64,000 nucleotides of DNA from Corallococcus coralloides (GTDB lineage: Bacteria > Myxococcota > Myxococcia > Myxococcales > Myxococcaceae). Numbering within the stretch: the first letter of the stretch is position 1; each line of letters opens with the position of its first letter. The DNA lies in NCBI RefSeq assembly GCF_004104415.1, contig NZ_CP034669.1; one strand, 5' to 3'. Under the pieces are notes generated by a model. It saw nothing but the letters and a program-made list of their open reading frames with translations. It was not told where the DNA came from and made no database searches. Below, one piece after another: positions 36,501 through 61,164 of this stretch. Position numbers and translations under genes: made by a program.

Positions 36501-36872
36501 ACGGGCCTCACCTGTTCGTTCCAGGTGACGGTGCAGGACACCACGGCGCCCACGCTGACCTGCCCCGAGTCCCGGAGCGCGGCCCCTGGCGAGACGATCA
36601 CGTTCGAGCCCACGGCCACGGACGCGGTGACGGCCTCTCCGGTGGTGACGTCCTCGCCGGCTTCCGGCAGCCCCTTCCCCGCGGGCGCCACGACGGTCAC
36701 CGTCACCGCCACGGATGACGCGGGCAACACCGCGCAGTGCACGTTCCAGGTCCGGGTCCAGGCGCAGGTCGTGGAGATCGCTGGCGGTGGCTGCGATAGC
36801 ACCGGTGGCACCACGTCCGCGCTGGCGCTCCTCGCCGCGCTCGCGGCCTGGGGGAACTCGCGCCGCCGTCAG
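33591..36872 (+). CDS. Kelch-repeat lipoprotein with Ig-like/HYR domains and MYXO-CTERM tag; no in-frame stop before next gene
   Basis: Lipobox 'LGLLSCG'; >12 Kelch blades ('AELYDPATNTW', 'ATLLPDGRVLV'); HYR-like 'TLTCPANVVVEATDPDGALVTYDP'; MYXO-CTERM 'GGGCDSTGGTTSALALLAALAAWGNSRRRQ' then immediately 'MRMKAQSWALAALLATAVTPAAFA' (signal peptide of next protein) in the same frame. Confidence 0.7.
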
Positions 36873-43779: not shown

Positions 43780-45378
43780 ATGTTCAACGTCATCAACGTC
43801 TCCAAGGCCTATGGGCCCAAGAAGCTGTTCGAGGAGGTCAACGTCGCCTTCTCGCCGGGCCGCCGCTACGGCCTGACCGGTCCGAACGGGGCCGGCAAGT
43901 CCACGTTCATGAAGATCCTCGCGGGAGACGAGGAGCAGGACACGGGCGAGATCATCCGCCCCCGCAAGCTGGGCATCCTGCGCCAGGACCACTTCCGCTA
44001 CGAGAACGACCGCGTCATCGACGTGGTGTTGATGGGCAACCGCCACCTGTGGGCGGCGATGGACGAGAAGAACAAGCTGCTCGCCAAGCCGGACATCACC
44101 GAGGAGGACGGCAACCGGCTGGGTGAGCTGGAAGGCGTCATCGCGGAAGAGGACGGCTACTCGGCGGAGAGCGACGCGGCCACGCTGCTGGCCGGCCTGG
44201 GCATCGAGGAGTCCTTCCACGAAGAGCCCATGCGCCAGCTGACGGGCGGCCTGAAGCTGCGAGTGCTGCTCGCGCAGGCGCTGTTCGGCAAGCCGGAGGG
44301 GCTGCTGCTCGACGAGCCCACGAACAACCTGGACATCGACTCCATCCGCTGGCTGGAGAACTTCCTGCATGTGTACGAGGGCGTGCTGATCACCATCAGC
44401 CACGACCGGCACTTCCTGAACTCCATCTGCACGCACATCGCGGACATCGATTACGAGACCATCATCCAGTACACGGGTGGTTACGACGACATGGTCCGGC
44501 AGAAGTCGCAGCTGCGCACCCGGGTCGAGTCCGAGACGGCGGAGAAGAAGAAGAAGATCGCCCAGCTGCAGGACTTCGTGGCGCGCTTCCACGCCGGTAC
44601 GCGCGCGTCGCAGGTGCAGAGCCGCATCAAGCAGATCGACAAGCTGAAGACGGAGGACCTGAAGCGCTCGAACATCGCGCGGCCGTTCATCCGGTTCGAC
44701 CAGAAGGTGGTGAGCGGCCGGCAGACGCTGATGTTCGAGGGGCTGAAGAAGTCCTTCGACGGGGTGCCTGTCATCAAGCCGTTCACGGGCCTGGTCTGCA
44801 AGGGCGAGCGCATCTGCGTGATTGGCCGCAACGCCGTGGGCAAGTCCACGCTGGTGAAGATGCTGGCCGGGCAGCTGGAGCCGGACGCGGGGACCATCAC
44901 CTGGGGCCATCAGGCGACGGTGGGCTACCTGCCTCAGGACCACCACGGCGTCATCCACAAGGGGACGACGTGCTTCGGCTACCTCCGGGAGATCAGCGAG
45001 AAGCTGACGAACGAGGAGATTTCCGGCGTGTTGGGCCGGATGCTCTTCTCGGGTGAGGAGCGGATGAAGGCGACGGACACGCTCTCCGGTGGTGAGACGG
45101 TGCGCGTGCTGTTGTCCAAGCTGATGATCACGCAGGACAACGTGCTGATTCTGGACGAGCCGACGAACCACCTGGACCTGGAGTCCATCGCGGCGCTGGC
45201 GGAAGGCCTGTCGAAGTTCGACGGCACGGTCATCTGCGTGACCCACGACCAGGAGCTCATCTCCGAGGTCGCGACCCGCATCTGGAGCCTGGAGGCGGGC
45301 AAGGACGTGCTCGACTTCAACGGCCCCTACTCCGAGTTCATGGAGAAGCACGCGGACGCGGCGCTCAAGCGCCGGTAG
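43780..45378 (+). CDS. ABC-F family ATPase (two ABC domains, no TMD; Uup/YheS/EttA-like)
   Basis: Start MFNVINVSKAYGPKKLF at 43780; two Walker A 'GPNGAGKST'/'GRNAVGKST', two signatures 'LTGGLKLRV'/'LSGGETVRV', inter-domain linker with KKKK. Confidence 0.9.
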   Translation: MFNVINVSKAYGPKKLFEEVNVAFSPGRRYGLTGPNGAGKSTFMKILAGDEEQDTGEIIRPRKLGILRQDHFRYENDRVIDVVLMGNRHLWAAMDEKNKLLAKPDITEEDGNRLGELEGVIAEEDGYSAESDAATLLAGLGIEESFHEEPMRQLTGGLKLRVLLAQALFGKPEGLLLDEPTNNLDIDSIRWLENFLHVYEGVLITISHDRHFLNSICTHIADIDYETIIQYTGGYDDMVRQKSQLRTRVESETAEKKKKIAQLQDFVARFHAGTRASQVQSRIKQIDKLKTEDLKRSNIARPFIRFDQKVVSGRQTLMFEGLKKSFDGVPVIKPFTGLVCKGERICVIGRNAVGKSTLVKMLAGQLEPDAGTITWGHQATVGYLPQDHHGVIHKGTTCFGYLREISEKLTNEEISGVLGRMLFSGEERMKATDTLSGGETVRVLLSKLMITQDNVLILDEPTNHLDLESIAALAEGLSKFDGTVICVTHDQELISEVATRIWSLEAGKDVLDFNGPYSEFMEKHADAALKRR

Positions 45379-45457
45379 TCAGCACAGCAAGACGAGGCAG
45401 TGCGAACGCCGCCCGTTTCCGGTCCTCCGGAAGCGATGCGGCGTTTTCGTGCGGGTG
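45363..45457 (+). repeat. Direct repeat copy 1 (ABC-F 3' end 'gctcaagcgccggtag' + terminator hairpin 'aacgccgcccgtttccgg...ccggaagcgatgcggcgttttc')
   Basis: Seen directly; 30-nt core 'ggcagtgcgaacgccgcccgtttccggtcc' (45396-45425) identical to 54818-54847; flanks putative island. Confidence 0.8.
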
Positions 45458-45553
45458 TCAATCACCCTCACGGGGGATGCAACCGCGGCGAGGAGTGCGC
45501 CAGAACCTGGGGTGCCAGGTCGTCCCACCCATGACGACCCGGGGGGCACCTCC

Positions 45554-48500
45554 ATGACTCCGCACGACTCGGACCTGCTGAAAGAGCTTCAGCGGCAACG
45601 CACCCGGTTGCTGGATCTGAGCGCAACCAACCGACTCCTCCATTTCAAGCACACGGCCCGGACGTCGCTGCGCCTTGTGGATGAACTGCCAGGTGTTGTC
45701 TTCGAGCGCCTGAGCAACCACCGCGCGCTCACGTTCCTCCCTGTGATGCCGCCGGAGCATGCCTCCTCGGAAGAGGAGGACTTCGACCCTGCCGCCGCGA
45801 CGGTGGTGTTTTCGATGACGGCGGAGGAGGCCCCCAGCAAGGACGCCCGGCAGAAGCTGGTGCTTCAACAGGCGAAGAAGTTGGGCATCGATACCCGGTA
45901 TGATCTGCCCAAGGCGGTCCCTGCAGAGAGCGGCAGCAATCCGCGCAAGCACCAGGACCGCCACATCCAAACGTTGTACTTCCCGGAGGATCTGGAGAGC
46001 CACCTGCACCGCCTCCAGGGCCTCGCGCAAACGGCCATCCAGGAGACCGGGGCCAACCTGCTCCACTTCGTCTTCGGGTTCCTGCGCTGGTACGAGTCCG
46101 GTGACACCCGACAGGAGAAGCCTCGCAGCGCTCCGCTCGTGCTCATGCCGGTGAGCCTCAAGCGCGGCCAGGCGCACCCGGAGACGCGGGTCCACGCCTA
46201 CGAGGTGGACTACAACGAAGGCGAGTCCATCGAAACGAACCTCACGCTCCAGGAGAAGCTGCGGCAGGAGTTCGGCATCACGCTGCCGACCTTCTCCGTG
46301 GAGGATGGCTTGGAGGCGTACTTCGACAAGGTGACGGCGCTGCTCAAGGGCCTGCGCCCTGGCTGGAGCCTGGAGCGGCAGGTGACCCTGACGCTGCTGT
46401 CCTTCGGGCGGCTCCTGATGTGGCGGGACCTGGAGCCCACCCGCTGGCCCCAGAACAGTCCCATGCTGGCGAACCCGCTCGTCCAGACGCTGATGGGAGG
46501 ACAGGCGCATGCGAACGAACTTGGCGGAGGTGGCGGGGGGAGTCGGGAACGCCGGAGCGAGGTCTACGACCTGGACTCGCCAGCAGTGAATCCTCCGCCG
46601 CTCATCACGGACGCGGACAGCAGCCAGCACAGCGTGTTGGTGGACGTGCTCCGAGGCGAGAACCTGGTGGTCCAGGGGCCGCCTGGCACCGGGAAATCAC
46701 AGACCATCACCAACCTCATTGGCGCGGCGCTGGCGGCGGGCAAGACTGTGCTGTTCGTTACGCAGAAGCTGGCGGCGCTGGAGGTCGTCTCACGCCGCCT
46801 CCAGCAGGCGGGGCTCGGCGAGTTCTGCTTGGAGTTACACAGCCACAAGACCCAGAAACAGCAGTTCATGGAGGACCTGCGTCGACGACTCAACCTGGAT
46901 GCGAGCGCGAGCGCCCCTCGCCCGCTCACCGAACAGGTCTCGAGCGCGGCGGGCATCCTGCGCGCGCATACCGAGCGAATGCACAAGCCATTCGGGACGC
47001 TCGGCATGTCACCACACGACGTGTTCTGGAAGGTCAGTCGTGCTGAATCAGAGCTCGGGGAAGCGGTCGTGGAGCTGGAGGGCCTCCGCTTCGAGGGCGC
47101 TGAAGGCATGTCCACCTCTGCTCTGGCGGAGGTTCGCGACGCGGTTCGGAGCCTCGCGGCTCAGCTGGGGGATGTTCGCCGCGTCGCACCCATCCTTAGT
47201 GCTCACCCCTGGGCGGGTGTGACGAACGATGCGCTGACCGACAAGGACCGCCAGACACTCATTCAACGGATCGCCACTTGGGAAGAGTCCGCCCTGCGCT
47301 TGGAGAAAGCGCTGGCGGCCTTCACCGTCCGCACGGGCGTCACGCCCAGGTCGAGCGTGCTCGCGGCGGATGCGCTGGTCTCCAACATCCGGGTCTTGCC
47401 GCGACTCCCGGAGGGGGCTCCCGCGACGCTGGTCCCTGCCCTGCTCGATTCCACGCAGCGCGAGGGATTACGAGCCCTGCTTGATGCCATCGAAGCGGTC
47501 CAGGCGCGGTGGGCGGGGTTGGAAGCGGGCTGGCGCGCCCAGGAGGACCTGACCGCGCCCGCGCTGCGCGATGCGGAAGCCGTCCTCGACATTGCCCTGC
47601 GCCTGCTCTCGCCTGACACCACGCTCGTCACCCTGACGCGCGCGCATGAAGCGGTGGAAGCAGCGGCCCGAGCACTGGCGCAGGCTCGCCGGTTCGTGGC
47701 CGAAGTGGCCTCGTGCCTGGAGGTCGATGTCACGCTCTGGACGCCTCAGCAGCTCCAGACTTTCGCCCGCGTTGTCGAGGCGATGGCCGCCCTGGACGAC
47801 ACCACTTTGGAGTGGCGGGACCCGCGCTGGCTCGATCGCGAAGCCGAGGAGTCACTTCGGAAGGCCGACAGGACCTGCACGGAATTGAAAGAGCAGGCGC
47901 GGGCGCTCGCGGTGCGCTTCATGCCCGAGCTCGTTCCTCCCCTCGCGACGCTCAAGTCCCATGCCGTCGCGGTTGCGACCGCGCCATTCATCCCCTGGCT
48001 CTCGGGCGCATGGCGTGCCGCGCGGCGAGATTTCCAGGCCATGGCCCACGGCGTCCGTCCAACGAGGCCCGTATTGATCCAGGGCTACAACGACCTGCTG
48101 GCACATTACGCGGCACGGGAGCGGCTCCAAGAGGACGCGCCCCTGAAAGCGACCTTGGGCGCCCGCTTCCAGGGAGTCGAGACACGCTTCGACCGAATCC
48201 TTTCGTGGTTGGACGCATACCGGAACATCGATGCATTGCTCCTCACAATGGGCGATCGAGGTTTGGAGCTACGCCGCGCGGTGTTGGAGCGCTCCCCGAG
48301 CCATTGGAGAGAGGTCCTGGCGAAGGTCCGCGCGAAGAGTGATGAACTGCCCCAGGTCCGCGACGTGAGTACCTCCGTGCAAGAGGCCTCGACGCGCATG
48401 GGGCTGCCGCACGCGCCCTGGAACACCGAGCCTTTCGGAAAGGCCCAGGACAGTCTCGACGCCCTGCGGAAGCACCTGGGCGAGGTTCTAAACTGGGCAC

Positions 48501-50752
48501 GGAAGGGAGATGCCCCGCCGTCCCTGACCCTCTCCCAGCTCCAGGGACAGCTGCGCCGGGTGCACGAGGCGTGCGGCGCCACGGACGAACTGGAAGCGCA
48601 CGCTCCCGCAGCGGCCCTGCCAGGGGTGGCCTACCAGGGCCGGAAAACCTCCCTCGCGGGTCCCCGAAGCGTTCTCCGCCATGTTGATGACCTCCTCGCG
48701 GCGCCGCTGCCGGAAGGCTTGGCCGAGTGGCTGCTGCGAGAGGACACGCCACGAAAGCATGCGGACCTGCTCGCCGCCGCGGACGAGTTGGAGACAGCGC
48801 TCTCCGCCTACAGACAGTCCGCCACCCAAGCCTGGGAACTGGGAAGGATGGCCCCGGGCACCTGGGAGGATCACTCCGCCGAGGAACCGCTCCAATGGAC
48901 GGTCTTGCGCCTGCGCCAGGCCCGAAGCCAGTCCGCGACGCTTCCGGCCTGGTGCGCGTATCAACGGCAGCGGCGCGCCGTCGCGCGAGCGCGGAGCACC
49001 GCTGGGTTCTTGGAGCGCGTCGACACACGCCCCGGCCTGGAGCCAGAGCGGCTGGTCGCGGCCTTCGACGCTGTCTTCTTCCGCTCCCTGGCGGAAGCCA
49101 TCCTGCGAAACCAACCGGAGCTCGATCAATTCACGGGCGCCGTCCATGCCTCCCAGCGTGAGGAGTTCGCACGCCTGGACACGCATTGCATCGAAAAGCA
49201 GGGTCGATACCTGGCGCGTCAGCTCAGCCAGCGTCCGGCTCCTCCCGGCGTGTCCTCGGCGAAAGTGGCGGGTATGACGGAGACCCATCTTCTGAGGCAT
49301 GAGCTGGGTAAGAAGCAGCGGCACCTCCCCATCCGTGAGCTGGTGGCACGCGCTGGCAGTGCGCTTCAGACGCTGATGCCGTGTTTCATGATGGGTCCGC
49401 AGTCAGTTGCCCAGTACCTGCCCGCCGGACAGCTGACCTTCGACCTGGTGGTGATGGACGAGGCCAGCCAGATGCGTCCCGAGGATGCACTGGGAGCCAT
49501 TGCCCGAGGAAGGCAGTTGGTGGTGGTGGGCGACCCGGAGCAACTCCCTCCCACCAGCTTCTTCGCCCAGATGGAGCAGGAGGACACAGACTCCAACAAC
49601 GAGACGGGAGACGAGGTCCAGGGCCCGTCCTTCCTGGAGGATTCAGAGAGCATCCTCACGGCGGCGGCGGAGCGGTTCCCCATGCGCATGCTGCGCTGGC
49701 ATTACCGTTCCCGCCATCCCTCGCTCATCGCTTTCAGCAATCGCGAGTTCTACAACGGAGACCTCATCACCTTCCCCGCACCAGGTGAGCAACTGGACGG
49801 GCTGGGACTGCGCTTCCACAAGGTAGACGGAGGATTGTACGAGTCCAACCGAAACGTCCCCGAAGCTCGCGAGGTGCTGGCGAAGGTGAAAGAGCACGCG
49901 CGTACTCGCCCCGAGCAGAGCCTGTTGGTCGTCACGTTGAACTCGAAGCAGCGGGATCTCATCGACGACCTGGTGATTGCCGAGGAGAAGAACGACGTGA
50001 CCCTCCGGGCCTTCCTGGCGAAATGGGAAAAGTCACCCATGCCCTTCAACGTGAAGAACCTGGAGAACGTCCAGGGCGACGAGCGCGACGCCATCTTCGT
50101 GTCGGTCACGTTTGGTCGGAACCAGCAGAAGCAGTTCCGGATGAACTTCGGCCCCATCAACCAAGCGGACGGGTACCGTCGGCTGAACGTGCTCTTCACG
50201 CGGGCGAGATGCGCGCTGACGGTGTTCGCATCGTTCGACCCCTCGGAACTCACGCTCCAGGAAAGCAGCCCGCGTGGGATGCGCGTCCTGCAACGGTACC
50301 TGTCCGAAGCCAAAGGAGAGAAGGTGGCGCACGGCGTGGGGAGCGGCCGTCCACCGGATTCCGACTTCGAAATCGCTGTCGCGAAGGCGCTCGCGGCGCG
50401 GGGCTTCGAGGTGGTTCCGCAGGTAGGCGTCGCGGGCTACTTCATCGACATGGCCCTCCGGCATCCCCAGCAACCGGGCCGATACATTCTCGGTGTCGAG
50501 TGCGACGGCGAGCGGTATCACTCATCGCGCTCCGCACGGGACCGAGATCGGCTCCGGGACCAGGTGTTGAAGGGCCTGGGGTGGAAGCTCCACCGCATCT
50601 GGTCCACGGACTGGTTCCGCTCACCTTCCGAAGAGGTCGCCCGGATCGTCGCGCACGTCGAAAAGCTCCTTCGGGAGGAGGCAACTGAGTTGCCAGCCGT
50701 CGTGCGTGATGCGTCCCAGGTGGAGCACCAGATGCGAGCCGTCAGCGCCTGA
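45554..50752 (+). CDS. Large DUF4011/SF1 (Upf1-DNA2-like) helicase fused to C-terminal Vsr/DUF559(DUF3320)-type endonuclease; candidate defence protein
   Basis: Start MTPHDSDLLKEL at 45554; Walker A 'VVQGPPGTGKSQTITNLI', motif II 'FDLVVMDEASQM', 'VVVGDPEQLPPT', 'NVQGDERDAIFVS', 'NVLFTRAR'; C-terminus 'GYFIDMALRHPQQPGRYILGVECDGERYHSSRSARDRDRLRDQVLKGLGWKLHRIWSTDW' REase-like. Confidence 0.8.
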   Translation: MTPHDSDLLKELQRQRTRLLDLSATNRLLHFKHTARTSLRLVDELPGVVFERLSNHRALTFLPVMPPEHASSEEEDFDPAAATVVFSMTAEEAPSKDARQKLVLQQAKKLGIDTRYDLPKAVPAESGSNPRKHQDRHIQTLYFPEDLESHLHRLQGLAQTAIQETGANLLHFVFGFLRWYESGDTRQEKPRSAPLVLMPVSLKRGQAHPETRVHAYEVDYNEGESIETNLTLQEKLRQEFGITLPTFSVEDGLEAYFDKVTALLKGLRPGWSLERQVTLTLLSFGRLLMWRDLEPTRWPQNSPMLANPLVQTLMGGQAHANELGGGGGGSRERRSEVYDLDSPAVNPPPLITDADSSQHSVLVDVLRGENLVVQGPPGTGKSQTITNLIGAALAAGKTVLFVTQKLAALEVVSRRLQQAGLGEFCLELHSHKTQKQQFMEDLRRRLNLDASASAPRPLTEQVSSAAGILRAHTERMHKPFGTLGMSPHDVFWKVSRAESELGEAVVELEGLRFEGAEGMSTSALAEVRDAVRSLAAQLGDVRRVAPILSAHPWAGVTNDALTDKDRQTLIQRIATWEESALRLEKALAAFTVRTGVTPRSSVLAADALVSNIRVLPRLPEGAPATLVPALLDSTQREGLRALLDAIEAVQARWAGLEAGWRAQEDLTAPALRDAEAVLDIALRLLSPDTTLVTLTRAHEAVEAAARALAQARRFVAEVASCLEVDVTLWTPQQLQTFARVVEAMAALDDTTLEWRDPRWLDREAEESLRKADRTCTELKEQARALAVRFMPELVPPLATLKSHAVAVATAPFIPWLSGAWRAARRDFQAMAHGVRPTRPVLIQGYNDLLAHYAARERLQEDAPLKATLGARFQGVETRFDRILSWLDAYRNIDALLLTMGDRGLELRRAVLERSPSHWREVLAKVRAKSDELPQVRDVSTSVQEASTRMGLPHAPWNTEPFGKAQDSLDALRKHLGEVLNWARKGDAPPSLTLSQLQGQLRRVHEACGATDELEAHAPAAALPGVAYQGRKTSLAGPRSVLRHVDDLLAAPLPEGLAEWLLREDTPRKHADLLAAADELETALSAYRQSATQAWELGRMAPGTWEDHSAEEPLQWTVLRLRQARSQSATLPAWCAYQRQRRAVARARSTAGFLERVDTRPGLEPERLVAAFDAVFFRSLAEAILRNQPELDQFTGAVHASQREEFARLDTHCIEKQGRYLARQLSQRPAPPGVSSAKVAGMTETHLLRHELGKKQRHLPIRELVARAGSALQTLMPCFMMGPQSVAQYLPAGQLTFDLVVMDEASQMRPEDALGAIARGRQLVVVGDPEQLPPTSFFAQMEQEDTDSNNETGDEVQGPSFLEDSESILTAAAERFPMRMLRWHYRSRHPSLIAFSNREFYNGDLITFPAPGEQLDGLGLRFHKVDGGLYESNRNVPEAREVLAKVKEHARTRPEQSLLVVTLNSKQRDLIDDLVIAEEKNDVTLRAFLAKWEKSPMPFNVKNLENVQGDERDAIFVSVTFGRNQQKQFRMNFGPINQADGYRRLNVLFTRARCALTVFASFDPSELTLQESSPRGMRVLQRYLSEAKGEKVAHGVGSGRPPDSDFEIAVAKALAARGFEVVPQVGVAGYFIDMALRHPQQPGRYILGVECDGERYHSSRSARDRDRLRDQVLKGLGWKLHRIWSTDWFRSPSEEVARIVAHVEKLLREEATELPAVVRDASQVEHQMRAVSA

Positions 50753-50765
50753 ACAGGAGACATCC

Positions 50766-52331
50766 ATGACAACGATCATCGCCATTGGCCTGGGCGTGTT
50801 GGGCCTGTTGCTCCTTGGCTTGTGGTTGCGGACGCGAAGCCAGCTCAAGGCCGTCCAGGAACGATTCAAGCCCATCCTGGACCTGGAGGCCGAACGGCGC
50901 CGGGTCGCGGAGGAGTTGACGCAGGCCCGCACGGACGCGACCACGGCGATGGCCGCGGAACAAAAGCGGGTCCAGGACGAACTGGCCAAAGCCCGAAGCG
51001 AAGCGGACAGTGCGCTGGCGGCGGAGCGGAAGCGGGTGGAAACCGAGCTCGCTCGCGCCAAGGCAGACGTGGAGCAGGCCATCTCCGCGGAACAGGGCCG
51101 GGCCAAAGCGGAGTTGAACCGGCTCCGCGAAGAGACGAGCCGGACGACGCAAAGCGCGACGCGCGCCATGGAGGAAGCCGAAGCGCGTCGAAAGCAGGCG
51201 AACACCGAGCGGACCAGCCTGGAGTCAGGCATCGCCCGACTGAAGGCCGAGTTGAAGGCATTGGAGGAAGAGGAGGTCCTGCTCTCATTCGGATTCTACA
51301 AGCCGGTGTATGCGTTGGCGTCGGTCAAGGAGTACGAGGACCGGCTGGAGAGGATCCGCGACTCCCAGAAGCAGATGCTGAAGAACAAGGAAGCCGCCAC
51401 GTGCTCCATTCAGTGGGAGGTGAATGGAAGCAAGGCAGAAGGCAAGAAGCAGATTGACCGGACCTTGAAGCTGATGCTCCGGGCCTTCAACGGCGAGGCG
51501 GACGCGTGTGTGGCGAAGGTGTCCTACAAGAACGTAAAGGCCATGGAGACGCGCATCGAGAAGGCGGCCGCCGCCATCAATGGTCTCGCGGAGATCCAGC
51601 AGTGCGTCATCGCCAGGCGCTACGTCAAGCTCAAGGTCGAGGAGCTGATGCTCGCGTACGAGTATGAGGAGAAGGTGCAGCAGGAGCGTGACGAGCAGCG
51701 CCGGATCCGGGAGCAGATGCGCGAGGAGGAGGCCGCCCAACGCGAGTTGGAGAAGGCGAAGCTGGAGGCGGAGCGCGAAGCGAAGCGCGACGCAGAGGCC
51801 CTGGCCAAGGCAAAGGCGGACTACGAGCAGGCCAAGGGCTCAGAGCAGCAGAGGCTGATGGAGCGCATCGCGGAGCTGGAGCGCCGTGTGGCGGAAGACC
51901 TGGAGAAGCAGCGCGCCATCTCCCAGGCCCAGCTCACCCGGACGGGGCATGTCTACGTCATCTCCAACATCGGCTCCTTTGGAGACGGCGTGTTCAAGAT
52001 GGGAATGACCCGGCGGCTGGTACCCCAGGACCGCATCGACGAGCTGGGAGACGCGTCGGTGCCCTTCGAGTTCGACGTCCACGCCATCATCCGGACCTCG
52101 GATGCCCCGGCCTTGGAAAACGCATTGCACAAGGCTTTCGCGAATCGGCGCGTCAACCGCATCAACGAGCGCAAGGAGTTCTTCCGCGTCAGCCTGGATG
52201 AGATCGCGGAGGCGGTCCGCAAGCATCACGGTGAGTTTGAATTGACCCGGACTGCTGAAGCTGCGGAATACCGGAAGACGTTGGCACTCCAAGAGGGAGA
52301 ACAAGGTCGGCCCAGTGAGCAAGCCGCATGA
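50766..52331 (+). CDS. N-terminal TM + coiled-coil + DUF4041 + T5orf172 (GIY-YIG-like) domain protein; candidate defence protein
   Basis: Start MTTIIAIGLGVLGLLLLGLWL at 50766; 180-aa coiled coil; C-terminus 'GHVYVISNIGSFGDGVFKMGMTRRLVPQDRIDELGDASVPFEFDVHAIIRTSDAPALENALHKAFANRRVNRINERKEFFRVSLDEI' matches T5orf172/MUG113 consensus. Confidence 0.75.
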   Translation: MTTIIAIGLGVLGLLLLGLWLRTRSQLKAVQERFKPILDLEAERRRVAEELTQARTDATTAMAAEQKRVQDELAKARSEADSALAAERKRVETELARAKADVEQAISAEQGRAKAELNRLREETSRTTQSATRAMEEAEARRKQANTERTSLESGIARLKAELKALEEEEVLLSFGFYKPVYALASVKEYEDRLERIRDSQKQMLKNKEAATCSIQWEVNGSKAEGKKQIDRTLKLMLRAFNGEADACVAKVSYKNVKAMETRIEKAAAAINGLAEIQQCVIARRYVKLKVEELMLAYEYEEKVQQERDEQRRIREQMREEEAAQRELEKAKLEAEREAKRDAEALAKAKADYEQAKGSEQQRLMERIAELERRVAEDLEKQRAISQAQLTRTGHVYVISNIGSFGDGVFKMGMTRRLVPQDRIDELGDASVPFEFDVHAIIRTSDAPALENALHKAFANRRVNRINERKEFFRVSLDEIAEAVRKHHGEFELTRTAEAAEYRKTLALQEGEQGRPSEQAA

Positions 52332-52371
52332 ATTATGACCGGCCTGCACTTCTGGTAGCGTTCAGCACTCG

Positions 52372-54102
52372 ATGAACTCCGACCCGTTTTCGCATCCTGC
52401 GGATGCGCTCCCTAATGCTGTCATTGCCGCCTCTCAAACTCGGAAGATCGCGTTTTTGCTAGGCTCCGCCCTGTCGACACAAGAAAGAACTGGCGCCCCC
52501 CAGGTCCCCGGGGTGAACGCGATGCTCGATCTGATCCGCGAGCACGTTCCCGCCCAGTTTCAGGCGAAATTCGATACAGATCGGATTCACATCAAAGACA
52601 ATATCTACCAATGGGCCATGCATTTTCTGCAGGGCCGAGAGGGCAAGCAGGTCGCCGAGAAGGTTGTGAGAGAAGCTGTGCTCCGTGCACGGCTCGACCG
52701 ACAAAGGGATGGCGCCGCAACTGATGCCGAGCTTGATCGGGACTACGACGGATGGGCACTGCCTCCTGCGACTGAGCACCTTGGCAAACTACTGGTGGAG
52801 CAGGCTGACAAATTTGGTCCTGTCTTGACCACGAACTTCGACCCTCTCATCTCCGCGTCAATCAAGATGGCTGGCGGAGATTTTCACCGCACCCTCGTGG
52901 TCAACAACAGTCCTTTTGGGCACACGACTCTATCCTCGAACTCGACACACATTATTCATCTACACGGCTACTGGCACAAGTCACCCACGTTACACTCCGT
53001 CGCGCAGATTGCTCGTGATCGAGATCAAGTCGCCGCAGAGCTTGTTCAGATTCTTCAAAACCACACCCTCGTTGTCGTCGGATACGGCGGCTGGGATGAC
53101 GTCTTCACCAAGACGCTCTCGGCTATCAACGCCAACCCGCATAATGATGTCGACATCCTTTGGGCATTCTACGAAACCGAAGCAGATCACTTGCTTGAGG
53201 CGCGTTATCACCACCTCTTCAGCAAGGTTTCAAACTTAAGGGGCAACACGGGTCTTCGCTGCTACAAGGGCATCAACTGCCACAAGTTCTTTCCTGAACT
53301 TCGAAAACAGTTCGACGCATCCGTTGCCCCGCAGTCGCCCCCTCCCAGCACAGTCCGACAGCCACCGCCGCCATCCATCCCAATCGCCTCGACCACCAGA
53401 GCCCCTGGGCCGGCGACCTCGTCCCCCTCAAGTGCGGCGAAGCCACCCGAGCCAGTGCCCTCCGCGTCGGACCGTCCCGCCTCCCCTTCCGTTCCAAAGA
53501 CGGACGGCACGGGCAGCCCTCCGAAATCAGGCTCCAGGAGAATCCTGCCGTTTGCGGCTGCCGCGCTGATTGCCGGCGGCGTGGCAGCGGTCTGGCCATC
53601 CCCGAGCAAAGGCGTCAGCAATGACGTCTTTGTCGTTCAGACTCCGCGCAATCTGAGACCTGTCGAGCCGCAGCCCCCGACGACGACCGCTCCGGCCCCG
53701 GTACCCGCAAGCACGCTCAGAAGCGTTCGCCAACAACACCAGGTCGTGGCAGCTTCGGACGCCGAACGCGGAACTCGCGTCTCGCAGCTTCCCCGGGGTC
53801 GCTACGCATTTGTGCCGATGAGCGCTCTTCCCACCTACAGCGCGGACACCCCCATCTACGGCCCCATTCAGGAGGGAATCGAGATTCATCGCTCGCGCGC
53901 GGATGGAGCCTTGTATCTCGTAGGCTACGCGGATGCCCCGACCATCGCGGCCCTGGGATATCCGAACCCCGCGCCCATCGTCATTACCCCAACACCCAGC
54001 GGTAGAAGGACGCAGGTCGCGAGCATTTCTGTCTCTCGGATGACCACCGCTGAAGTACGCATGGACAAGGGCACCCGCGTGTTGGTTCTCCACCTCAACT
54101 AA
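52372..54102 (+). CDS. SIR2-like (SIR2_2/DHS-like NAD-binding) domain protein with Pro-rich linker, single TM helix and C-terminal periplasmic domain
   Basis: Ordered motifs 'KIAFLLGSALS' (Rossmann Gly loop), 'VLTTNFDPLI' (TTNYD-like), 'HIIHLHGYW' (catalytic His) with ThsA-like spacing; TM 'ILPFAAAALIAGGVAAVW'; N-terminal 900 nt ~50-53% GC vs ~69% background. Confidence 0.6.
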   Translation: MNSDPFSHPADALPNAVIAASQTRKIAFLLGSALSTQERTGAPQVPGVNAMLDLIREHVPAQFQAKFDTDRIHIKDNIYQWAMHFLQGREGKQVAEKVVREAVLRARLDRQRDGAATDAELDRDYDGWALPPATEHLGKLLVEQADKFGPVLTTNFDPLISASIKMAGGDFHRTLVVNNSPFGHTTLSSNSTHIIHLHGYWHKSPTLHSVAQIARDRDQVAAELVQILQNHTLVVVGYGGWDDVFTKTLSAINANPHNDVDILWAFYETEADHLLEARYHHLFSKVSNLRGNTGLRCYKGINCHKFFPELRKQFDASVAPQSPPPSTVRQPPPPSIPIASTTRAPGPATSSPSSAAKPPEPVPSASDRPASPSVPKTDGTGSPPKSGSRRILPFAAAALIAGGVAAVWPSPSKGVSNDVFVVQTPRNLRPVEPQPPTTTAPAPVPASTLRSVRQQHQVVAASDAERGTRVSQLPRGRYAFVPMSALPTYSADTPIYGPIQEGIEIHRSRADGALYLVGYADAPTIAALGYPNPAPIVITPTPSGRRTQVASISVSRMTTAEVRMDKGTRVLVLHLN

Positions 54103-54108
54103 CTAACA

Positions 54109-54783
54109 ATGAAACTCAAAAATCGTCCCCTTTTCCTTGGTTTGATGTCGCTTCTCTTGCTTGCTGGCTGTGGGCCCGAGGACCTCAACCCTGGTCCCGT
54201 CGACCCCATCGTGGAAGACCCGCCGCTCGAGCAGATCTGCACTGCGGGAAACTGCGCGGGCTGCTGTGACCCGACCACGAAAAAATGCGTCCAGGTTCGC
54301 ACCAACGATGCATGTGGCGCCAATGGCGTCAGCTGCACGAAATGCGCGACGGGCACCATCTGCCATCCATCACAGCAACAGTGCTACACACCTACCATCC
54401 GCGCGAAGATCCGGGCTGTGCGGGCTACAGTCTCCTCCCATGATCCCGCAGATGACAGTGACTGGGATGTCGATGGCTCACCCCCGGACGCCTTGATTCA
54501 GCTGACCTGCCCCAACGCCCAGCCTGCGGTTTCCGAGTCGGAAGAGGTTGAGAGCTTCACCCCCAACTGGACCACGGGGGCGTGTGATGTCCTCGGCACG
54601 GATCTGCTTTCCATGCCTGTCCAGTTCAACGTTCTCGATGTCGACGTTCTCGTCGATGACAATGTTGCGTCAGGCCAGTACCAGTTCACCCAAGCCGACG
54701 TCGATAATGGAGCCGTGGAATTGACGGGCTCCGGTGCTCTGACCTCCGTGGTTTTCCAGCTCACCACCTACTACGCCGACTAG
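54109..54783 (+). CDS. Cys-rich lipoprotein (paralog of 58758..59378)
   Basis: Lipobox 'LLLLAGCG'; 'CTAGNCAGCCDPTTKKCVQVRTNDACGANGVSCTKCATGTICHPSQQQCYTP...DWDVDGSPPDALIQLTCPNA' conserved with 58758 gene. Confidence 0.65.
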   Translation: MKLKNRPLFLGLMSLLLLAGCGPEDLNPGPVDPIVEDPPLEQICTAGNCAGCCDPTTKKCVQVRTNDACGANGVSCTKCATGTICHPSQQQCYTPTIRAKIRAVRATVSSHDPADDSDWDVDGSPPDALIQLTCPNAQPAVSESEEVESFTPNWTTGACDVLGTDLLSMPVQFNVLDVDVLVDDNVASGQYQFTQADVDNGAVELTGSGALTSVVFQLTTYYAD

Positions 54784-54789
54784 GTCGGA

Positions 54790-54881
54790 GCTCAAGAGCG
54801 CCGGTTCCGAGGCTCCAGGCAGTGCGAACGCCGCCCGTTTCCGGTCCATCCGGAAACGAGGCGGCGTTTTCATGCCCGGGT
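54790..54881 (+). repeat. Direct repeat copy 2 (includes 'gctcaagagcgccggt' remnant of ABC-F 3' end + terminator hairpin with U-tract)
   Basis: Seen directly; hairpin 'aacgccgcccgtttccgg-tccat-ccggaaacgaggcggcgtt' followed by TTTTC. Confidence 0.8.
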
Positions 54882-54934
54882 CGACAATGGCTCTACTGCA
54901 ATATGGTGCAGCTCGTTCGGTATGATGCAGGGCC

Positions 54935-56365
54935 ATGTACCCGAGACGCCGTCTTCTGGCCCGTGGACAGTGGCTGTTCGATCTCAGACCGCATCGGCTC
55001 ATCGTCTTCCACGGAGGCGAAGGCGTGCGCCGGGAGGTCAGTGGAGACGTTCCGAATCCTCCGGCCGCACCCGTGGTGCTCGCCGCGCTGGATGAGGCAA
55101 CGAACGTCTGGGTGGGAAGCGGGAATCGGCGTGTCTTTACCGTGGGGGCCAGCGCGAGCGCTCCCGCCCAGGCCTTTCCGCGGGAGTGCTTCGATCTCAC
55201 CTCCGATGGGGACCGGCTCATCGGAACGGTGGTGGACGGCGCCCTCAAGCTGACCACCCTCTTCACGACCGATGGGTCCGGGCAGCAATGGGCGCCCCTG
55301 CCCCTGCCCAAGCCCGTGACCGCCACGCACGGATATGGGTACTCCGAGGGGCGCCCTCCCCGTCAGTCCCCTGATGGGGCGTTCCTTGATACGAGCCCCT
55401 TTGGCATCACCGTCGTGGAGAAGGGCCGGGGCCGCGTCTACGTGCTCCGCCCGGGGGCGGCTCAGCCGGAGGGAGCGCTCCAGATGGAACCGGGCCATGA
55501 GCAGGACATCTGGCGGGCCCAGGCCACTCCCCATGGTGTGCTCCTCCTGCTCGTCATCAACTACCGCCAGACAGCGCTCCTCCACTTCGCGCTCGACGGC
55601 ACCCTGCTCGGCTCCATCCCGGAACAGGATGGTGATGACGATGAGGAAGAGGAACAGACCTGGGGCGGTGCCGGTGTGTGTGTCCTCGACGCGGACCGGG
55701 CGCTCCTCTTCGTCCAGGACAAGGCCCTCCTCGTATCTCTGCCCGGGCTCCAGGTGATCGAAACGCTCGCGGGAGAATGGCCCTCCTTCGTGTCCGTGAC
55801 GCCCGCGGGACCTGACCGGTGGTGGGTGGGCGCCGAGGACAGTGACTCACTCTTCCTGCTCACAGCCGAACCCGGACACCCCTTGCACCTCCATTCCTCG
55901 AACCGTCCGGTGAGCCCGGGCGCGCCGCTCATGCACGTGGGCTACAAGACGCCCGCGATCCACTGGGCCGAGCACACCTCGGCGCCGCTGACCGTGTCCG
56001 CGCCCGTGACCGAGACCTGGCGGGCGGTGGTGCGCAATGACGGGACCGCGTGTGAGGTGGTGCGGATCCGCGTGTCCGGAGTGCTCGTCGGCGCTCGCGT
56101 GGTGGACGTGAGCGTGCGGTATCGCGGCCAGCCGCTCCCGATGGTAGAGGAGCACCGCGTGAACCTCGTGGGGAATACCTCCGGACTGGAGGGAGGGGCC
56201 ACCGCGGAGCTGGAGGTGACCTTCAAGCCCCGGAGCGAGGGCTCGGGACCGCTGACCATCACCGTCGAGCCGTGCTCCTGGCAGTGGCAGGGCAAGGACG
56301 AGCCTCGCGCCCTCGCGGTGACGGGCCATCCGGCATCCGCCCAATTCCTGCTCACGGTGGAGTAG
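54935..56365 (+). CDS. Hypothetical protein (476 aa)
   Basis: Protein-like composition, acidic linker 'DGDDDEEEEQ'; no recognised domain. Start uncertain. Confidence 0.45.
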   Translation: MYPRRRLLARGQWLFDLRPHRLIVFHGGEGVRREVSGDVPNPPAAPVVLAALDEATNVWVGSGNRRVFTVGASASAPAQAFPRECFDLTSDGDRLIGTVVDGALKLTTLFTTDGSGQQWAPLPLPKPVTATHGYGYSEGRPPRQSPDGAFLDTSPFGITVVEKGRGRVYVLRPGAAQPEGALQMEPGHEQDIWRAQATPHGVLLLLVINYRQTALLHFALDGTLLGSIPEQDGDDDEEEEQTWGGAGVCVLDADRALLFVQDKALLVSLPGLQVIETLAGEWPSFVSVTPAGPDRWWVGAEDSDSLFLLTAEPGHPLHLHSSNRPVSPGAPLMHVGYKTPAIHWAEHTSAPLTVSAPVTETWRAVVRNDGTACEVVRIRVSGVLVGARVVDVSVRYRGQPLPMVEEHRVNLVGNTSGLEGGATAELEVTFKPRSEGSGPLTITVEPCSWQWQGKDEPRALAVTGHPASAQFLLTVE

Positions 56366-56394
56366 CGCGGACCACGCCCCCGTCTTCGCTCAGC

Positions 56395-57393
56395 TCATGA
56401 CGGGCGAGGGCTGGAGTCGTCGCTCGCGGTGACCTGCTGGACGAGCTGGGCCAACTGCCGCGAGGTCACCGGCTCCCCCTCCGAGAGGATGAAGTCCTCC
56501 AGGTCCTTCCGGAACGCGTGGCAGTCCGGGTAGCGCTGCTCCCGCTCCTTCGCGAGCGCCCGGGCGAGGATGGCTCGAAGGGCATCGGGCAGGTCTTGCC
56601 GGTGCTGCTCGGCGGGCACGAGGGGCTCGAACAAGGCGGCCTGAAACAAGCCCCCGTCGGGCGTGGAATCAAAGGGCCTGCGCGTGGTGAGCACCCCGTA
56701 GAGCGCCACACCGAGCGCGTATACGTCCACCCTCCGATCCACCGGCACGCCCCTGGCCTCCTCGGTCGCCATGTACCTGTACTTGCTCAGGTTGGGGATG
56801 AGGTATCGGGGCGCCCATCGATCCCGGAAATCGTCGATGCCGAAGCCCACCACCTGGGTCATCCCCTGGCGCGACAGGAGGATGTTGTACGGCCTGATGT
56901 GTCGGTGGATGAGCCTCAACGGCTCGTGCGTCTTTGGGTCGGTGAGGTCGTGGGCATAGGCGAGCCCCTCGCAGGCTTGCGAGATGATGCGCGCGCACAG
57001 GGTCGCCGGCAGGGGCATCCGCTGGGCCGCCACGTGCTCGATCACCCTGCGCAGGCTGGGCCCGTCAATGTGCTCCCTGGCGAGGAAGTACGTGCCGTCC
57101 GCCTCACCCACGTCGAAGACCTTCACGAGGTGCGGGTGCGTGAGCCGGGCGGCGTTCCTCGCCGTGTCGAGGAAGATCTCCGGGAAATCCACCTGCTCGG
57201 CCATGTCCGAGCGGAGGCACTGGAGCACCAGCGTCTTCTCGGTGCCCTGCGGGCCGGCGGCGCTGGCCAGATAGTCCTCGATGATGCCTTCAGCGAGCAG
57301 GCGGATGCGCTGGTATTTGCCAACTTGGGATGTCACGGGGCGTATGAATAGCAGACCATGACCCGGTATCGCTTCCTGGGGCTTGCACCGCAC
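56395..57393 (-). CDS. Ser/Thr kinase-fold pseudokinase
   Basis: Kinase subdomains recognisable but catalytic residues replaced: 'TLVLQCL' (VAIK Lys->Gln), 'IHRHIRPYNILL' (HRD Asp->His), 'VVGFGI' (DFG->GFG); retains 'YMATEEA' (APE-like) and 'DVYALGVALYGVLT'. Confidence 0.65.
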   Translation of the reverse strand: MRCKPQEAIPGHGLLFIRPVTSQVGKYQRIRLLAEGIIEDYLASAAGPQGTEKTLVLQCLRSDMAEQVDFPEIFLDTARNAARLTHPHLVKVFDVGEADGTYFLAREHIDGPSLRRVIEHVAAQRMPLPATLCARIISQACEGLAYAHDLTDPKTHEPLRLIHRHIRPYNILLSRQGMTQVVGFGIDDFRDRWAPRYLIPNLSKYRYMATEEARGVPVDRRVDVYALGVALYGVLTTRRPFDSTPDGGLFQAALFEPLVPAEQHRQDLPDALRAILARALAKEREQRYPDCHAFRKDLEDFILSEGEPVTSRQLAQLVQQVTASDDSSPRPS

Positions 57394-57470
57394 CGGATTG
57401 TTGAGACACCCGATGGGTCGTAATCAGGCCGCTTGCTTTCGCAGCAGCTCCCGCCGGCCCTGACCCGCGC

Positions 57471-58130
57471 TCAATCGCGGTCCGGCGCTCCCAGCGGGAA
57501 GAGCGGCCGGTACGGCCTCCCTCCATCCACCGCGCGGGCAACGGACGGACGCGCGAGCAACCTCGCGCGATAGGCGCGCAGTTCGGGACACGACTCGGGA
57601 ATCCGGTGCGTCCAGTCCGCGTAGAACAGCGACGGCGCCGCCGCACAGTCCGCCAGCGTGAAGTCGTTGCCCGCGGCCCAGGTCCGGCCACCCAGCTGCC
57701 CTTCAATCCAACCGTAGGCGCGCTCCAGCTTCTCCACCGCCAGCTTCATCCCGTCCTGGCGCTTCACCGGGTCCCCCGTCAACGCACCATCCACGGCGTG
57801 CTGGACCATGTTCATGACGTGCAGGTCGAAGAAGCGGTCGAGGAACCGCACGTCCAGCGCTGCCATCGGCTCCTCGGGCAGCAGGCGCACCGGGCCGGGA
57901 TGCTTCAGTTGGAGATACTCGATGATGATGCTCGTCTCGACGACCTGACGGTCACCGTCCACCAGCAGCGGGAACTTGCGCAGCGGCCAGCGGCGCAGCC
58001 ATTCGGCTGAGTGCTCCGGTGTCTCCGGGCTGATGCTTCGAAACTCGAAGGGCGTGCCGTTCTCATACAGCGCGATGAGCACCTTCTGCGTGTACGCGGA
58101 GAAATAGTGACCGTAGACCGCGAGCGACAT
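57471..58130 (-). CDS. Glutathione S-transferase
   Basis: Start MSLAVYGHYFSAYTQKVLIALYENGTPFEF at 58130; GST N- and C-terminal domains. Upstream ORF extension not protein-like. Confidence 0.85.
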   Translation of the reverse strand: MSLAVYGHYFSAYTQKVLIALYENGTPFEFRSISPETPEHSAEWLRRWPLRKFPLLVDGDRQVVETSIIIEYLQLKHPGPVRLLPEEPMAALDVRFLDRFFDLHVMNMVQHAVDGALTGDPVKRQDGMKLAVEKLERAYGWIEGQLGGRTWAAGNDFTLADCAAAPSLFYADWTHRIPESCPELRAYRARLLARPSVARAVDGGRPYRPLFPLGAPDRD

Positions 58131-58227
58131 CGTCGGACCCTTCCTTTCGACTACTTGCGTTTCGCAATGGGTTGAACCGTATTCAGACTGCTTGCATACT
58201 GCAAGTATCAATTCCTGGAGAACGGCC

Positions 58228-58734
58228 ATGCCGCAGACGGGACGCTCCGGCTGCCCCATCAACCTGACGCTCGAACAGCTCGGCGACCGCTGGAGCCTGA
58301 TCGTCATCCGCGACGTCATGTTCGGGAACCGGCGCAGCTATGGCGACCTGCTCTCGCAGAGTGAGGAGGGCATCGCCTCCAACATCCTCGCGGACCGGCT
58401 CAAGCGCCTGACCGCGTCCGGCCTGCTGTCGCGACGTCCGGATCCGAAGCACCAACAGAAGGGCATCTACAGCCTCACGGAGGCGTCCATCCAGCTGGTG
58501 CCCCTGCTCGCGCACATGGGGGCCTGGGGCCGCCGGCACACGGAGGTGAGCGAGGAGCTGTCGGTGCGCGCGGAGCTGCTGGAGAAGGGCGGCCCGCCGC
58601 TCTGGGATGCGTTCATGGAGGAGCTGCGCCACCTGCACCTGGACGCGCCGCGCCCTACCCGCTCGGTGTTCCGCGAGCTTCAGGCCGCCTATGAGAAGGC
58701 CGTCGCGCGCAACGCTCGGGACGGACGGACCTGA
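58228..58734 (+). CDS. HxlR-family transcriptional regulator
   Basis: 'CPINLTLEQLGDRWSLIVIRDVMFGNRRSYGDLL...GIASNILADRLKRLTASGLLSR' HxlR wHTH; divergent from GST. Confidence 0.8.
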   Translation: MPQTGRSGCPINLTLEQLGDRWSLIVIRDVMFGNRRSYGDLLSQSEEGIASNILADRLKRLTASGLLSRRPDPKHQQKGIYSLTEASIQLVPLLAHMGAWGRRHTEVSEELSVRAELLEKGGPPLWDAFMEELRHLHLDAPRPTRSVFRELQAAYEKAVARNARDGRT

Positions 58735-58757
58735 AGCGGGTAGCGTTCACCGCGCTC

Positions 58758-59378: not shown

Positions 59379-59417
59379 GGCTGTAACCGCTCCCCCGCCC
59401 CCGGCGTAGTCCTGACC

Positions 59418-59903: not shown

Positions 59904-59956
59904 AAATGACGACGGGCGGCCCCCTTCCGAGGACCGCCCGCCGTTGAGCGGCTTGG

Positions 59957-60997
59957 CTACCGTGCCGCGGACTTGCGGCGCATCAGGAACACGCCCAGGC
60001 CCACGCCCGCGACCCACTTCGCTGCGGCGGCCAGCGGCGTCTTGCTCAGCGCCACCGGGCGGCTCTCGTACCGTGGCTGGGGCGGCACCGGACGGAAGTC
60101 CGTGGCGCCGGGGAGGCTCGCGCCCTTCTCCTCCGCCTCCGTCTTCGTCACGTTCGGTCCCGGCGCGTCCGGATCCCGCGAACCCGGCGCCTTCCCGTCC
60201 GGCGACTTGTGCTCGAGGATGCCGTTGATCTCCGCGCCCAGCAGCACGACCATGCAGGAGATCTGCATCCACAGCAGCATCACGATGACACCGCCGATGG
60301 CGCCGTAGTTCACGTCGTACGAGCCAAAGTTCGCCACGTACTTCGAGAACCCCCACGAGGCGAGCACCCAGATGATCACGCTCACCACCGACCCCGGCGT
60401 GATGAACCTGAACTTCTGCTTCACGTCCGGCAGCACGTAGTAGAGCACCGCCAGCAGCAGCATCATCAGGATGCCCGCCACCGGCATGCGCAGCCACAGC
60501 ACGAGGCTGGTGAATGGCTCGCCCAGCTTGTCCGCGATGGCCGGCGTGACGACCGCGACGAGGGCCGCCAGCACCACCGTCACCGCCGTGCCCAGCGTCG
60601 TCAGCAGGGCAATGCCGCGCTTCTTCCAGAACGGGCGCTTCTCCGTCACGCCGTAGACCGTGTTGAGCGCCTCCATCAGCGCCACCACACCGCCGGACGC
60701 CGCCCAGACGGCGCCCACGCCGCCGATCGTCAGCAACCCCACCGGATTGCTGGTCGCCAGCGCCTCCAACCGCTCGCCCAGGATCTTCGTCACCTCCTGG
60801 GGCGCCACCTTCGACAGCTCCTGGATGAGCTGCTGCGCCTGGTGCGGATCAATCAGCACACCGGCCAGTGACACGAGGAACAGCAGGAACGGGAACAGCG
60901 CCAGGATGGCGGAGAACGTCAGCGCGCCCGCGACGTTGCCCACGTTGTCGCGCCCCCACTCATCCTTGAGGGACTTGAAGAACTCCTTCCAACTCAT
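59957..60997 (-). CDS. YihY/BrkB-family inner-membrane protein
   Basis: Start MSWKEFFKSLKDEWGRDNVGNVAGALTFSAILALFPFLLF at 60997; six TM helices, family pattern 'YGAIGGVIVMLLWMQISCMVVLLGAEIN'. Confidence 0.8.
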   Translation of the reverse strand: MSWKEFFKSLKDEWGRDNVGNVAGALTFSAILALFPFLLFLVSLAGVLIDPHQAQQLIQELSKVAPQEVTKILGERLEALATSNPVGLLTIGGVGAVWAASGGVVALMEALNTVYGVTEKRPFWKKRGIALLTTLGTAVTVVLAALVAVVTPAIADKLGEPFTSLVLWLRMPVAGILMMLLLAVLYYVLPDVKQKFRFITPGSVVSVIIWVLASWGFSKYVANFGSYDVNYGAIGGVIVMLLWMQISCMVVLLGAEINGILEHKSPDGKAPGSRDPDAPGPNVTKTEAEEKGASLPGATDFRPVPPQPRYESRPVALSKTPLAAAAKWVAGVGLGVFLMRRKSAAR

Positions 60998-61164
60998 TCC
61001 CCTGCCGGGCAGGACCATGCGTCTCCTCCTTGGAGGAGATTGGGCATTCCATCCCCCGGCTGGCCTCCTCCCCCGGGACGATGCTCGCCCCCCTGCCTGC
61101 TCACCGCGCAGGGGGCGGGGAATGACAAGCCCCCCGCGCCACGCCTGCCCGGCCGCCCTTCGTG

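Follow-up and report, generated by a model that had tools for sequence, protein, structure and literature searches.

The 64,000-nucleotide (nt) stretch of Corallococcus coralloides contig NZ_CP034669.1 analysed here (the window) contains, at 45554-50752, a gene encoding a protein of 1732 amino acids (aa). Our data suggest that this protein is a divergent antiphage helicase-nuclease of the Hhe family and that the gene was acquired horizontally, as the first gene of a defence hotspot that varies between strains and is bounded by the genes for an ABC-F ATPase and a BrkB-family protein. We put the probability of this reading at about 0.75. Judged by its motifs and by a structural model, the protein combines in a single chain a competent motor of the superfamily 1B (SF1B) type with a Vsr-like nuclease that is likewise competent, and it is encoded within a defence hotspot.

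The open frame runs on the + strand from 45449, where it opens with GTG, to 50752. The ATG at 45554 gives the 1732-aa protein, and this start and length are those annotated for the closest homologue, from C. coralloides (P0001, 93% identity). The longer GTG start at 45449 is not preferred because the homologues start at the position of the ATG. In Pfam, DUF4011 (PF13195) is matched at aa 18-236 (E 2.5e-33), AAA_30 and AAA_19 around the Walker A motif at aa 356-416, AAA_11 at aa 1295-1335, AAA_12 at aa 1374-1559 and the restriction-endonuclease-like domain MTES_1575 (PF18741) at aa 1605-1701 (E 5.6e-37, 126 bits). DUF559 (PF04480) scored 17.8 bits, under its gathering cut-off of 20.6 bits, and there was no match to PF11784/DUF3320 in the Pfam scan of the 1732-aa protein. 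Because more than 7440 homologous database proteins keep the same domain order, we take the frame to be a real gene and not a chance open reading frame (ORF) of high-GC DNA. The coordinates and length given in the initial annotation are exact, and the two strings it quoted lie where it placed them, NRLLHFKH at aa 26-33 and GYFIDMAL at aa 1628-1635. The string GVECDGERYH is at aa 1647-1656. Alignments of 13 and of 56 diverse homologues show no variation in the motifs of the helicase and the nuclease. The 1732-aa protein has all of these motifs, and the catalytic motifs of both enzymes, as read from the translation, are intact in it. The 86%-identical protein of Corallococcus sp. EGB (P0005) is annotated as 1474 aa without the DUF4011 region; its shortness could reflect truncation at the N-terminus, pseudogene status or a wrongly called start.

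The assignment to Hhe comes from profile matches and from alignment. The NCBIfam model NF042953 ('DUF4011 domain-containing anti-phage protein Hhe') matches with 1424.7 bits in one stretch, aa 12-1724, corresponding to profile positions 2-1702 of 1797. For calibration of the scores, plasmid hhe genes annotated by the Prokaryotic Genome Annotation Pipeline (PGAP) were fetched as a reference. The 1911-aa Hhe of the Klebsiella plasmid pKP048 scores 2734.9 bits on the same model, and non-enterobacterial relatives score 1291-1661 bits. In BLASTP, the pKP048 protein is 33% identical to the Corallococcus protein across 1837 alignment columns and the two are collinear over nearly the full length, as read from query residue 8 up to residue 1398. 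The order of Pfam domains is identical to that in the PGAP-annotated Hhe of Klebsiella and Vibrio: DUF4011, Walker A, a long insertion, AAA_11/AAA_12 and MTES_1575, all in one polypeptide. The protein differs from Klebsiella Hhe in its length (1732 aa as against 1911 aa) and in its myxobacterial host. From these comparisons the protein is assigned as a divergent member of the Hhe family or superfamily, 'divergent' because its score lies under the NCBI equivalog cut-off. The architecture was already known, since Hhe is modelled in both PADLOC and NCBIfam, and the gene alters nothing that is known of the family. Hhe (HheA) was reportedly first described as a single-gene antiphage system by Gao et al. 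in 2020.

The nearest solved structures by sequence are those of the Upf1-like SF1B helicases IGHMBP2, Sen1, DNA2 and Upf1. Helicase motifs I-III and V-VI are common to these enzymes and to the Corallococcus protein, and DNA2 is likewise a helicase-nuclease fusion. However, all four lack DUF4011, the Vsr-like nuclease and the insertion of ~790 aa that splits the first RecA-like domain of the Corallococcus protein. The insertion (aa ~451-1240) has a high content of Ala, Leu, Arg and Glu, and conservation is lower here than anywhere else in the protein, with few invariant columns in the alignment of homologues. Within the gene, it also has the lowest nucleotide identity to C. exiguus (62-69%). 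Its sole profile match is to a designed three-helix bundle (4tql; profile positions 556-778), and the insertion is probably helical. There was no Hhe-like chain in the copy of the PDB that was searched and no solved structure of the Hhe family was found.

Residues D1632, E1649, D1651 and H1656 of the C-terminal domain are invariant across the family alignments and are likely to form the active site. An AlphaFold model of aa 1560-1732 (predicted local distance difference test, pLDDT, 87.5) was compared with solved structures using Foldseek. It matches the NGO0050 endonuclease-like protein (3hrl) and the catalytic domain of I-Bth0305I (3r3p) with a probability of 1.00 and target-normalised template modelling (TM) scores of 0.74-0.82. 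Toxoplasma mitoribosomal proteins also match with a probability of 1.00, and Hjc, VRR_NUC and TnsA are further down the list. The matches of the model to solved structures confirm that the domain, as modelled, has a Vsr-like PD-(D/E)xK fold. In its fold, and in a conserved D...ExD...H pattern, it resembles the Vsr, DUF559 and I-Bth0305I ('EDxHD') nucleases, but it forms part of a helicase polypeptide and is not free-standing. The initial annotation had named DUF4011, an Upf1-like SF1 helicase and, at the C-terminus, a nuclease of Vsr type, and this reading is borne out by Pfam (PF13195, AAA_11 and AAA_12), by the PDB relatives and by the nuclease model. Its label for the nuclease holds for the Vsr-like fold; the assignment to DUF559 does not, the best family being MTES_1575. 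The N-terminal DUF4011 domain is modelled with confidence, yet has no match among the solved structures of the PDB.

The gene lies directly 3' of the conserved ABC-F gene and a terminator hairpin, as the first gene of an island. Across Corallococcus species the ABC-F protein keeps 95-98% identity, compared with 85-88% in other Myxococcaceae. In comparison with C. exiguus, nucleotide identity is 95-99% in the ABC-F gene and drops to 62-81% in the Hhe gene; it is 84-91% in the following gene (SNIPE, see below), ~80% in the SIR2 gene and 91% in the gene for a 476-aa protein. We compared the cargo on six C. exiguus contigs that have an identical ABC-F (P0121, 98% identical to that in the window). 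Two of the six have Hhe, SNIPE, SIR2 and lipoprotein genes after ABC-F. One (L094) has SNIPE, SIR2 and the lipoprotein without Hhe, and the remaining three have an unrelated set made up of genes for a 145-aa protein, a B12-binding radical-SAM protein and an AAA_21 ATPase (with Methyltransf_12), with an IS66 element in one case. In two other Myxococcaceae genomes there is no island at this site. In GXIMD 01537 (L097) BrkB follows ABC-F directly, with the Hhe-SNIPE pair of that genome located elsewhere, and in Myxococcus sp. SDU36 (L096) there is one unrelated gene between ABC-F and BrkB. The interval between ABC-F and BrkB (45379-59956) is thus a cargo hotspot with at least three alternative cargoes.

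Base composition also differs from that of the surroundings. GC content at third codon positions (GC3) amounts to 0.94-0.97 for the core genes on either side, 0.81 in Hhe, 0.84 in SNIPE, 0.66 in SIR2_2 and 0.70 in the lipoprotein gene, and the overall GC content of the window, ~0.70-0.73, dips to 0.60-0.68 at ~44-56 kb. Taken together, the cargo polymorphism, the empty sites, the nucleotide divergence and GC3 mark the Corallococcus Hhe gene, at the level of genome sequence, as accessory, horizontally acquired and fast-evolving. Canonical Hhe is likewise accessory and on mobile or variable DNA. Using tblastn, relatives were found on 497 plasmid records, mostly of Klebsiella, Ralstonia and Acinetobacter, and the family is patchily distributed over many bacterial phyla and several archaeal lineages. 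It is atypical of phage genomes, because relatives were present in only 3 of 50,697 phage records. In the literature, hhe has been described as exchangeable cargo of mobile elements (PMC11551731). The initial annotation had also placed the gene first in a defence island, and its position and its SNIPE (PD-lambda-1) and SIR2 neighbours agree with this; the gene is present or absent at the ABC-F hotspot, with empty sites in related genera, and so does not behave as a ubiquitous gene at a conserved position. The features of the locus are collected in Table 1.

Table 1. Positions in the window of the Hhe-family gene, its parts and the features of the hotspot
Feature	Position	Strand	Basis or remark
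ABC-F ATPase, conserved left flank of the hotspot	43780..45378	+	Pfam
Terminator-like hairpin of ABC-F (~45407-45443, then TTTT) and 26-nt motif (45455-45480)	45405..45480	+	Sequence reading; six loci with different cargo compared
Hhe-family gene, 1732 aa: DUF4011, split SF1 helicase, MTES_1575 nuclease	45554..50752	+	ORF, Pfam, NCBIfam, PADLOC, Klebsiella Hhe alignment
N-terminal DUF4011 domain, aa ~1-320 (Pfam match aa 18-236); loop at aa ~66-95 of low confidence	45554..46513	+	
Walker A / helicase motif I, GPPGTGKS, aa 375-382	46676..46699	+	Invariant across 13 diverse homologues
Insertion of ~790 aa in the first RecA-like domain, aa ~451-1240	46904..49273	+	No Pfam match
Walker B DEAS (aa 1302-1305) and motif III GDPEQLPP (aa 1326-1333)	49457..49552	+	Invariant; aligns to motif II/III of IGHMBP2, Sen1, DNA2 and Upf1
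Second RecA-like domain, AAA_12, aa 1374-1559, with WHYRS, VQGDERD and RRLNVLFTRAR motifs	49673..50230	+	
MTES_1575 (Vsr-like PD-(D/E)xK) nuclease, aa 1605-1701	50366..50656	+	Pfam, invariant residues, model, Foldseek
SNIPE / PD-lambda-1 gene, 521 aa: N-terminal hydrophobic segment, DUF4041, T5orf172 GIY-YIG-type nuclease	50766..52331	+	
Remaining cargo: SIR2_2-domain protein (52372-54102), Cys-rich predicted lipoprotein (54109-54783)	52372..54783	+	Pfam SIR2_2; lipobox in translation
BrkB-family gene, conserved right flank of the hotspot	59957..61018	-	Pfam

In E. coli, hhe is a validated single-gene helicase-nuclease defence (PMC11482910). In the fitness screen of that study, knock-outs marked genes 1.4-2 and 2.8, which belong to the class II DNA-metabolism genes of T7, as possible triggers of hhe. 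The study also showed that gene 40 of phage Bas63 is toxic only when hhe is present and that phage NAD+-synthesis genes mildly counter hhe. A gene of phage DruSM1 also counters hhe (bioRxiv 10.1101/2024.04.14.589459). We suggest that the Corallococcus protein may be a combined sensor and effector. In such a mechanism, the ATP-driven motor would load on nucleic acid that is made or exposed by phage DNA metabolism, and the loaded motor would bring the C-terminal nuclease into position, or license it, for nicking or cleaving DNA. Cleavage would block phage replication and may also harm the infected cell. Recognition of the target or trigger would most likely depend on the DUF4011 domain and the fast-evolving insertion. 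The gene probably acts on its own.

Several observations weigh against the assignment to Hhe or against this mechanism. The 1425 bits of the Corallococcus protein are below the equivalog cut-off of 2000 bits of the NCBIfam Hhe model. The last ~100-130 residues of canonical Hhe are absent (profile positions ~1703-1797, or ~130 aa in the 1911-aa protein), the Corallococcus protein stopping ~30 aa past the nuclease domain, and the DUF4011 insert is shorter than in canonical Hhe. The clade is placed by sequence and is only 33% identical to annotated enterobacterial Hhe. As to function, we infer the substrate, the polarity, the trigger and whether defence would be direct or abortive, and no published mechanism of Hhe was found in the literature searched. 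An involvement of NAD+ or adenine metabolism in hhe action has been suggested (PMC11482910), which a simple DNA-cutting model would leave unexplained. Co-transcription with SNIPE is suggested by a gap of 13 nt between the genes, and a promoter scan of 45-57 kb gave no sigma-70-like sites. Finally, DUF4011 proteins are not accessory in every lineage, because a large DUF4011 gene is core in every isolate of Pseudomonas aeruginosa, where it flanks a defence hotspot (PMC10250203). For Corallococcus, the polymorphism seen among the sequenced genomes settles the accessory status of the gene.

The gene downstream of Hhe encodes SNIPE, as shown by a PADLOC PD-Lambda-1 match of 507 bits and by the Pfam domains DUF4041 and T5orf172. 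SNIPE has been described as having three parts, a membrane segment at the N-terminus, DUF4041 and a nuclease of the T5orf172 family (bioRxiv 10.1101/2025.11.03.685801), and the gene at 50766-52331 has all three, the hydrophobic N-terminus being read straight from the DNA after the ATG. This ATG is at 50766, 13 nt past the Hhe stop codon, and is preceded by a GGAGA ribosome-binding site. In all 13 other Corallococcus-type Hhe loci examined (including L001, L002, L083-L087, L091, L092, L098 and L099; proteins 56-93% identical), a SNIPE gene lies 13-34 nt downstream in the same orientation. The pair is found in at least five genomic contexts, namely the ABC-F hotspot, GXIMD 01537, JPH2 and the metagenome contigs L087 and L098, and the Hhe/SNIPE junction, TGAACAGGAGAC..CCATG, is near-identical in several loci and contexts. 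The Hhe genes of the Corallococcus-type clade are thus paired with SNIPE at every locus examined, unlike canonical Hhe, and this constant pairing is the sole new detail of the gene. A sixth case is a metagenome-assembled Myxococcaceae genome (L007, 6156-12703), in which a 41%-identical Hhe-like gene is followed, ~100 bp downstream on the opposite strand, by a convergent SNIPE gene whose product is 71% identical to that in the window. Hhe and SNIPE may here have become associated a second time, independently.

Such constancy raises the question of whether the two genes form a cooperative, two-tier system. SNIPE, as a membrane nuclease, would cut phage DNA at injection, and the cytoplasmic helicase-nuclease would recognise the cut ends or anything that escapes SNIPE, with DUF4011 and the ~790-aa insertion as its specificity module. 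We regard this as unlikely, and if it were true it would give a first handle on what Hhe senses. We are similarly doubtful of the more general proposal that Hhe and SNIPE make up one two-gene system in the Corallococcus-type clade, in which membrane-bound SNIPE cuts entering DNA and the helicase-nuclease loads on the ends and destroys the phage genome, or in which one protein regulates the other. The tight, same-orientation linkage, the shared junction and the variety of contexts argue for a system of this kind. However, the C. exiguus contig L094 has SNIPE and SIR2 without Hhe at the same hotspot, SNIPE is missing beside a 39%-identical Hhe-like gene of another Myxococcaceae genome, and none of the 77 Hhe-like loci of other lineages had a SNIPE gene within 10 kb when searched using tblastn and a SNIPE hidden Markov model (HMM) built here. 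Additionally, divergence from C. exiguus is discordant, Hhe being 71% and SNIPE 93% identical, which suggests that the two genes recombine independently. Each has been reported to be sufficient alone in E. coli (PMC11482910; bioRxiv 10.1101/2025.11.03.685801), and the SNIPE paper names no helicase partner. Taken together, the pair is probably a co-inherited and co-transcribed layered cassette in which SNIPE is not an obligate partner of Hhe.

The top PADLOC score of the protein is for PDC-S37 (1260.9 bits, compared with 927 bits for the PADLOC Hhe model PDLC02194). PDC-S37 is an untested phage-defence candidate in PADLOC. The NCBIfam model NF058533 ('anti-phage protein ProA') also matches, with 1127.6 bits. 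The protein might accordingly belong to PDC-S37 or ProA and not to Hhe, and its trigger range or mechanism might then differ; we consider this improbable. Both scores probably reflect a common C-terminal half and not membership, because canonical Klebsiella Hhe scores alike on both models (1266 and 1131 bits), so that the top PADLOC score is uninformative. Similarity is strong over the C-terminal ~700 residues, which comprise the C-terminal half of the helicase and the nuclease. The matches are centred there and are fragmented, each consisting of three stretches, the best of which for PDC-S37 covers profile positions 646-1350 of 1550. The ProA score is under the cut-off of 1500 bits, and coverage of aa 12-1724 in one stretch was obtained with the NCBIfam Hhe model only. 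The PADLOC Hhe model is very narrow, giving 4297 bits on the Hhe of pKP048. No publication describing ProA was found in literature searches.

The initial annotation had likened the protein to Nhi and type II Mokosh, with a different nuclease and domain order. This comparison gives way to Hhe, which has the exact architecture. Mokosh resembles the protein in its defence context and in the C-terminal half of an Upf1-like SF1 helicase, and MkoA (97 bits) and MkoC (72 bits) match only at aa 1295-1592, within that half. The Mokosh models are without DUF4011, and the Mokosh helicase is coupled to a phospholipase D (PLD)-type nuclease and, in type I, to a second gene. Nhi likewise has an SF1 helicase and a nuclease in a single antiphage polypeptide; its nuclease is N-terminal and of another family, and PADLOC gave no match to Nhi for the Corallococcus protein at E <= 0.01. 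Membership of either system was rejected.

It is very improbable that the gene is instead a housekeeping helicase-nuclease of genome maintenance, acting like DNA2, Sen1 or Upf1 in repair or RNA surveillance and merely lying beside defence genes: the identity of its nearest solved relatives, the core DUF4011 gene of P. aeruginosa (PMC10250203) and its presence at the same locus in several Corallococcus species would fit such a role, but it is polymorphic among strains with identical ABC-F and missing from the site in sister genera, it is 68-93% identical between genomes whose ABC-F proteins are 95-98% identical, its codon usage is atypical, its family is on plasmids and patchy across the domains of life, and its likeness to the eukaryotic SF1B enzymes amounts to only 24-42 bits and is confined to the helicase motifs.

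Upstream of the Hhe gene are the genes for a tRNA-guanine transglycosylase (TGT) and the ABC-F ATPase. Downstream are those for SNIPE, the SIR2_2 protein, a predicted lipoprotein, the 476-aa protein, a Ser/Thr kinase, a glutathione S-transferase (GST), BrkB and rml sugar genes. There is a 26-nt motif, GTGTCAATCACCCTCACGGGGGATGC, at 45455-45480 that is kept in every cargo variant, and similarity stops and the variable cargo starts right after it. The motif may act as a promoter element, or it may mark a recombination boundary. Terminator-like sites over 45-57 kb were no commoner than in shuffled sequence, and the ABC-F hairpin was spotted by eye. The SIR2_2 protein (576 aa) and the lipoprotein (224 aa, lipobox LLAGC) co-occur in Corallococcus islands with or without Hhe, and their genes have the lowest GC3 of the locus. 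PADLOC gave only weak matches in this region, to models for SIR2 associated with prokaryotic Argonaute (pAgo) and for PDC-S65. The gene for the 476-aa protein, which has no match in Pfam, PADLOC or NCBIfam, adjoins that of the convergent Ser/Thr kinase (54935-57393). Both are 75-87% conserved in all the C. exiguus cargo variants and are absent from C. coralloides L001, and they look like a second layer of the variable flank.

Elsewhere in the window, at 33591-38579, an ORF for a 1662-aa protein with Kelch-repeat and OmpA domains is shadowed by an antisense ORF of 1605 aa (33597-38414), which illustrates how long spurious ORFs arise in GC-rich DNA. In two other Myxococcaceae genomes, SbcCD-like pairs (Metallophos and an SMC-type ATPase) adjoin Hhe-like genes (L100, 1-6806; L084, 16774-20642), once together with an SNF2 helicase.

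In summary, Hhe is a recognised antiphage system whose mechanism is unsolved and whose DUF4011 domain has no counterpart in the PDB. To this the locus adds a divergent myxobacterial clade of Hhe, a well-delimited ABC-F/BrkB defence hotspot and a lineage-specific, tightly linked Hhe-SNIPE pair, of which natural variants without Hhe exist. These variants are ready-made comparisons for the question of whether the two nucleases cooperate.

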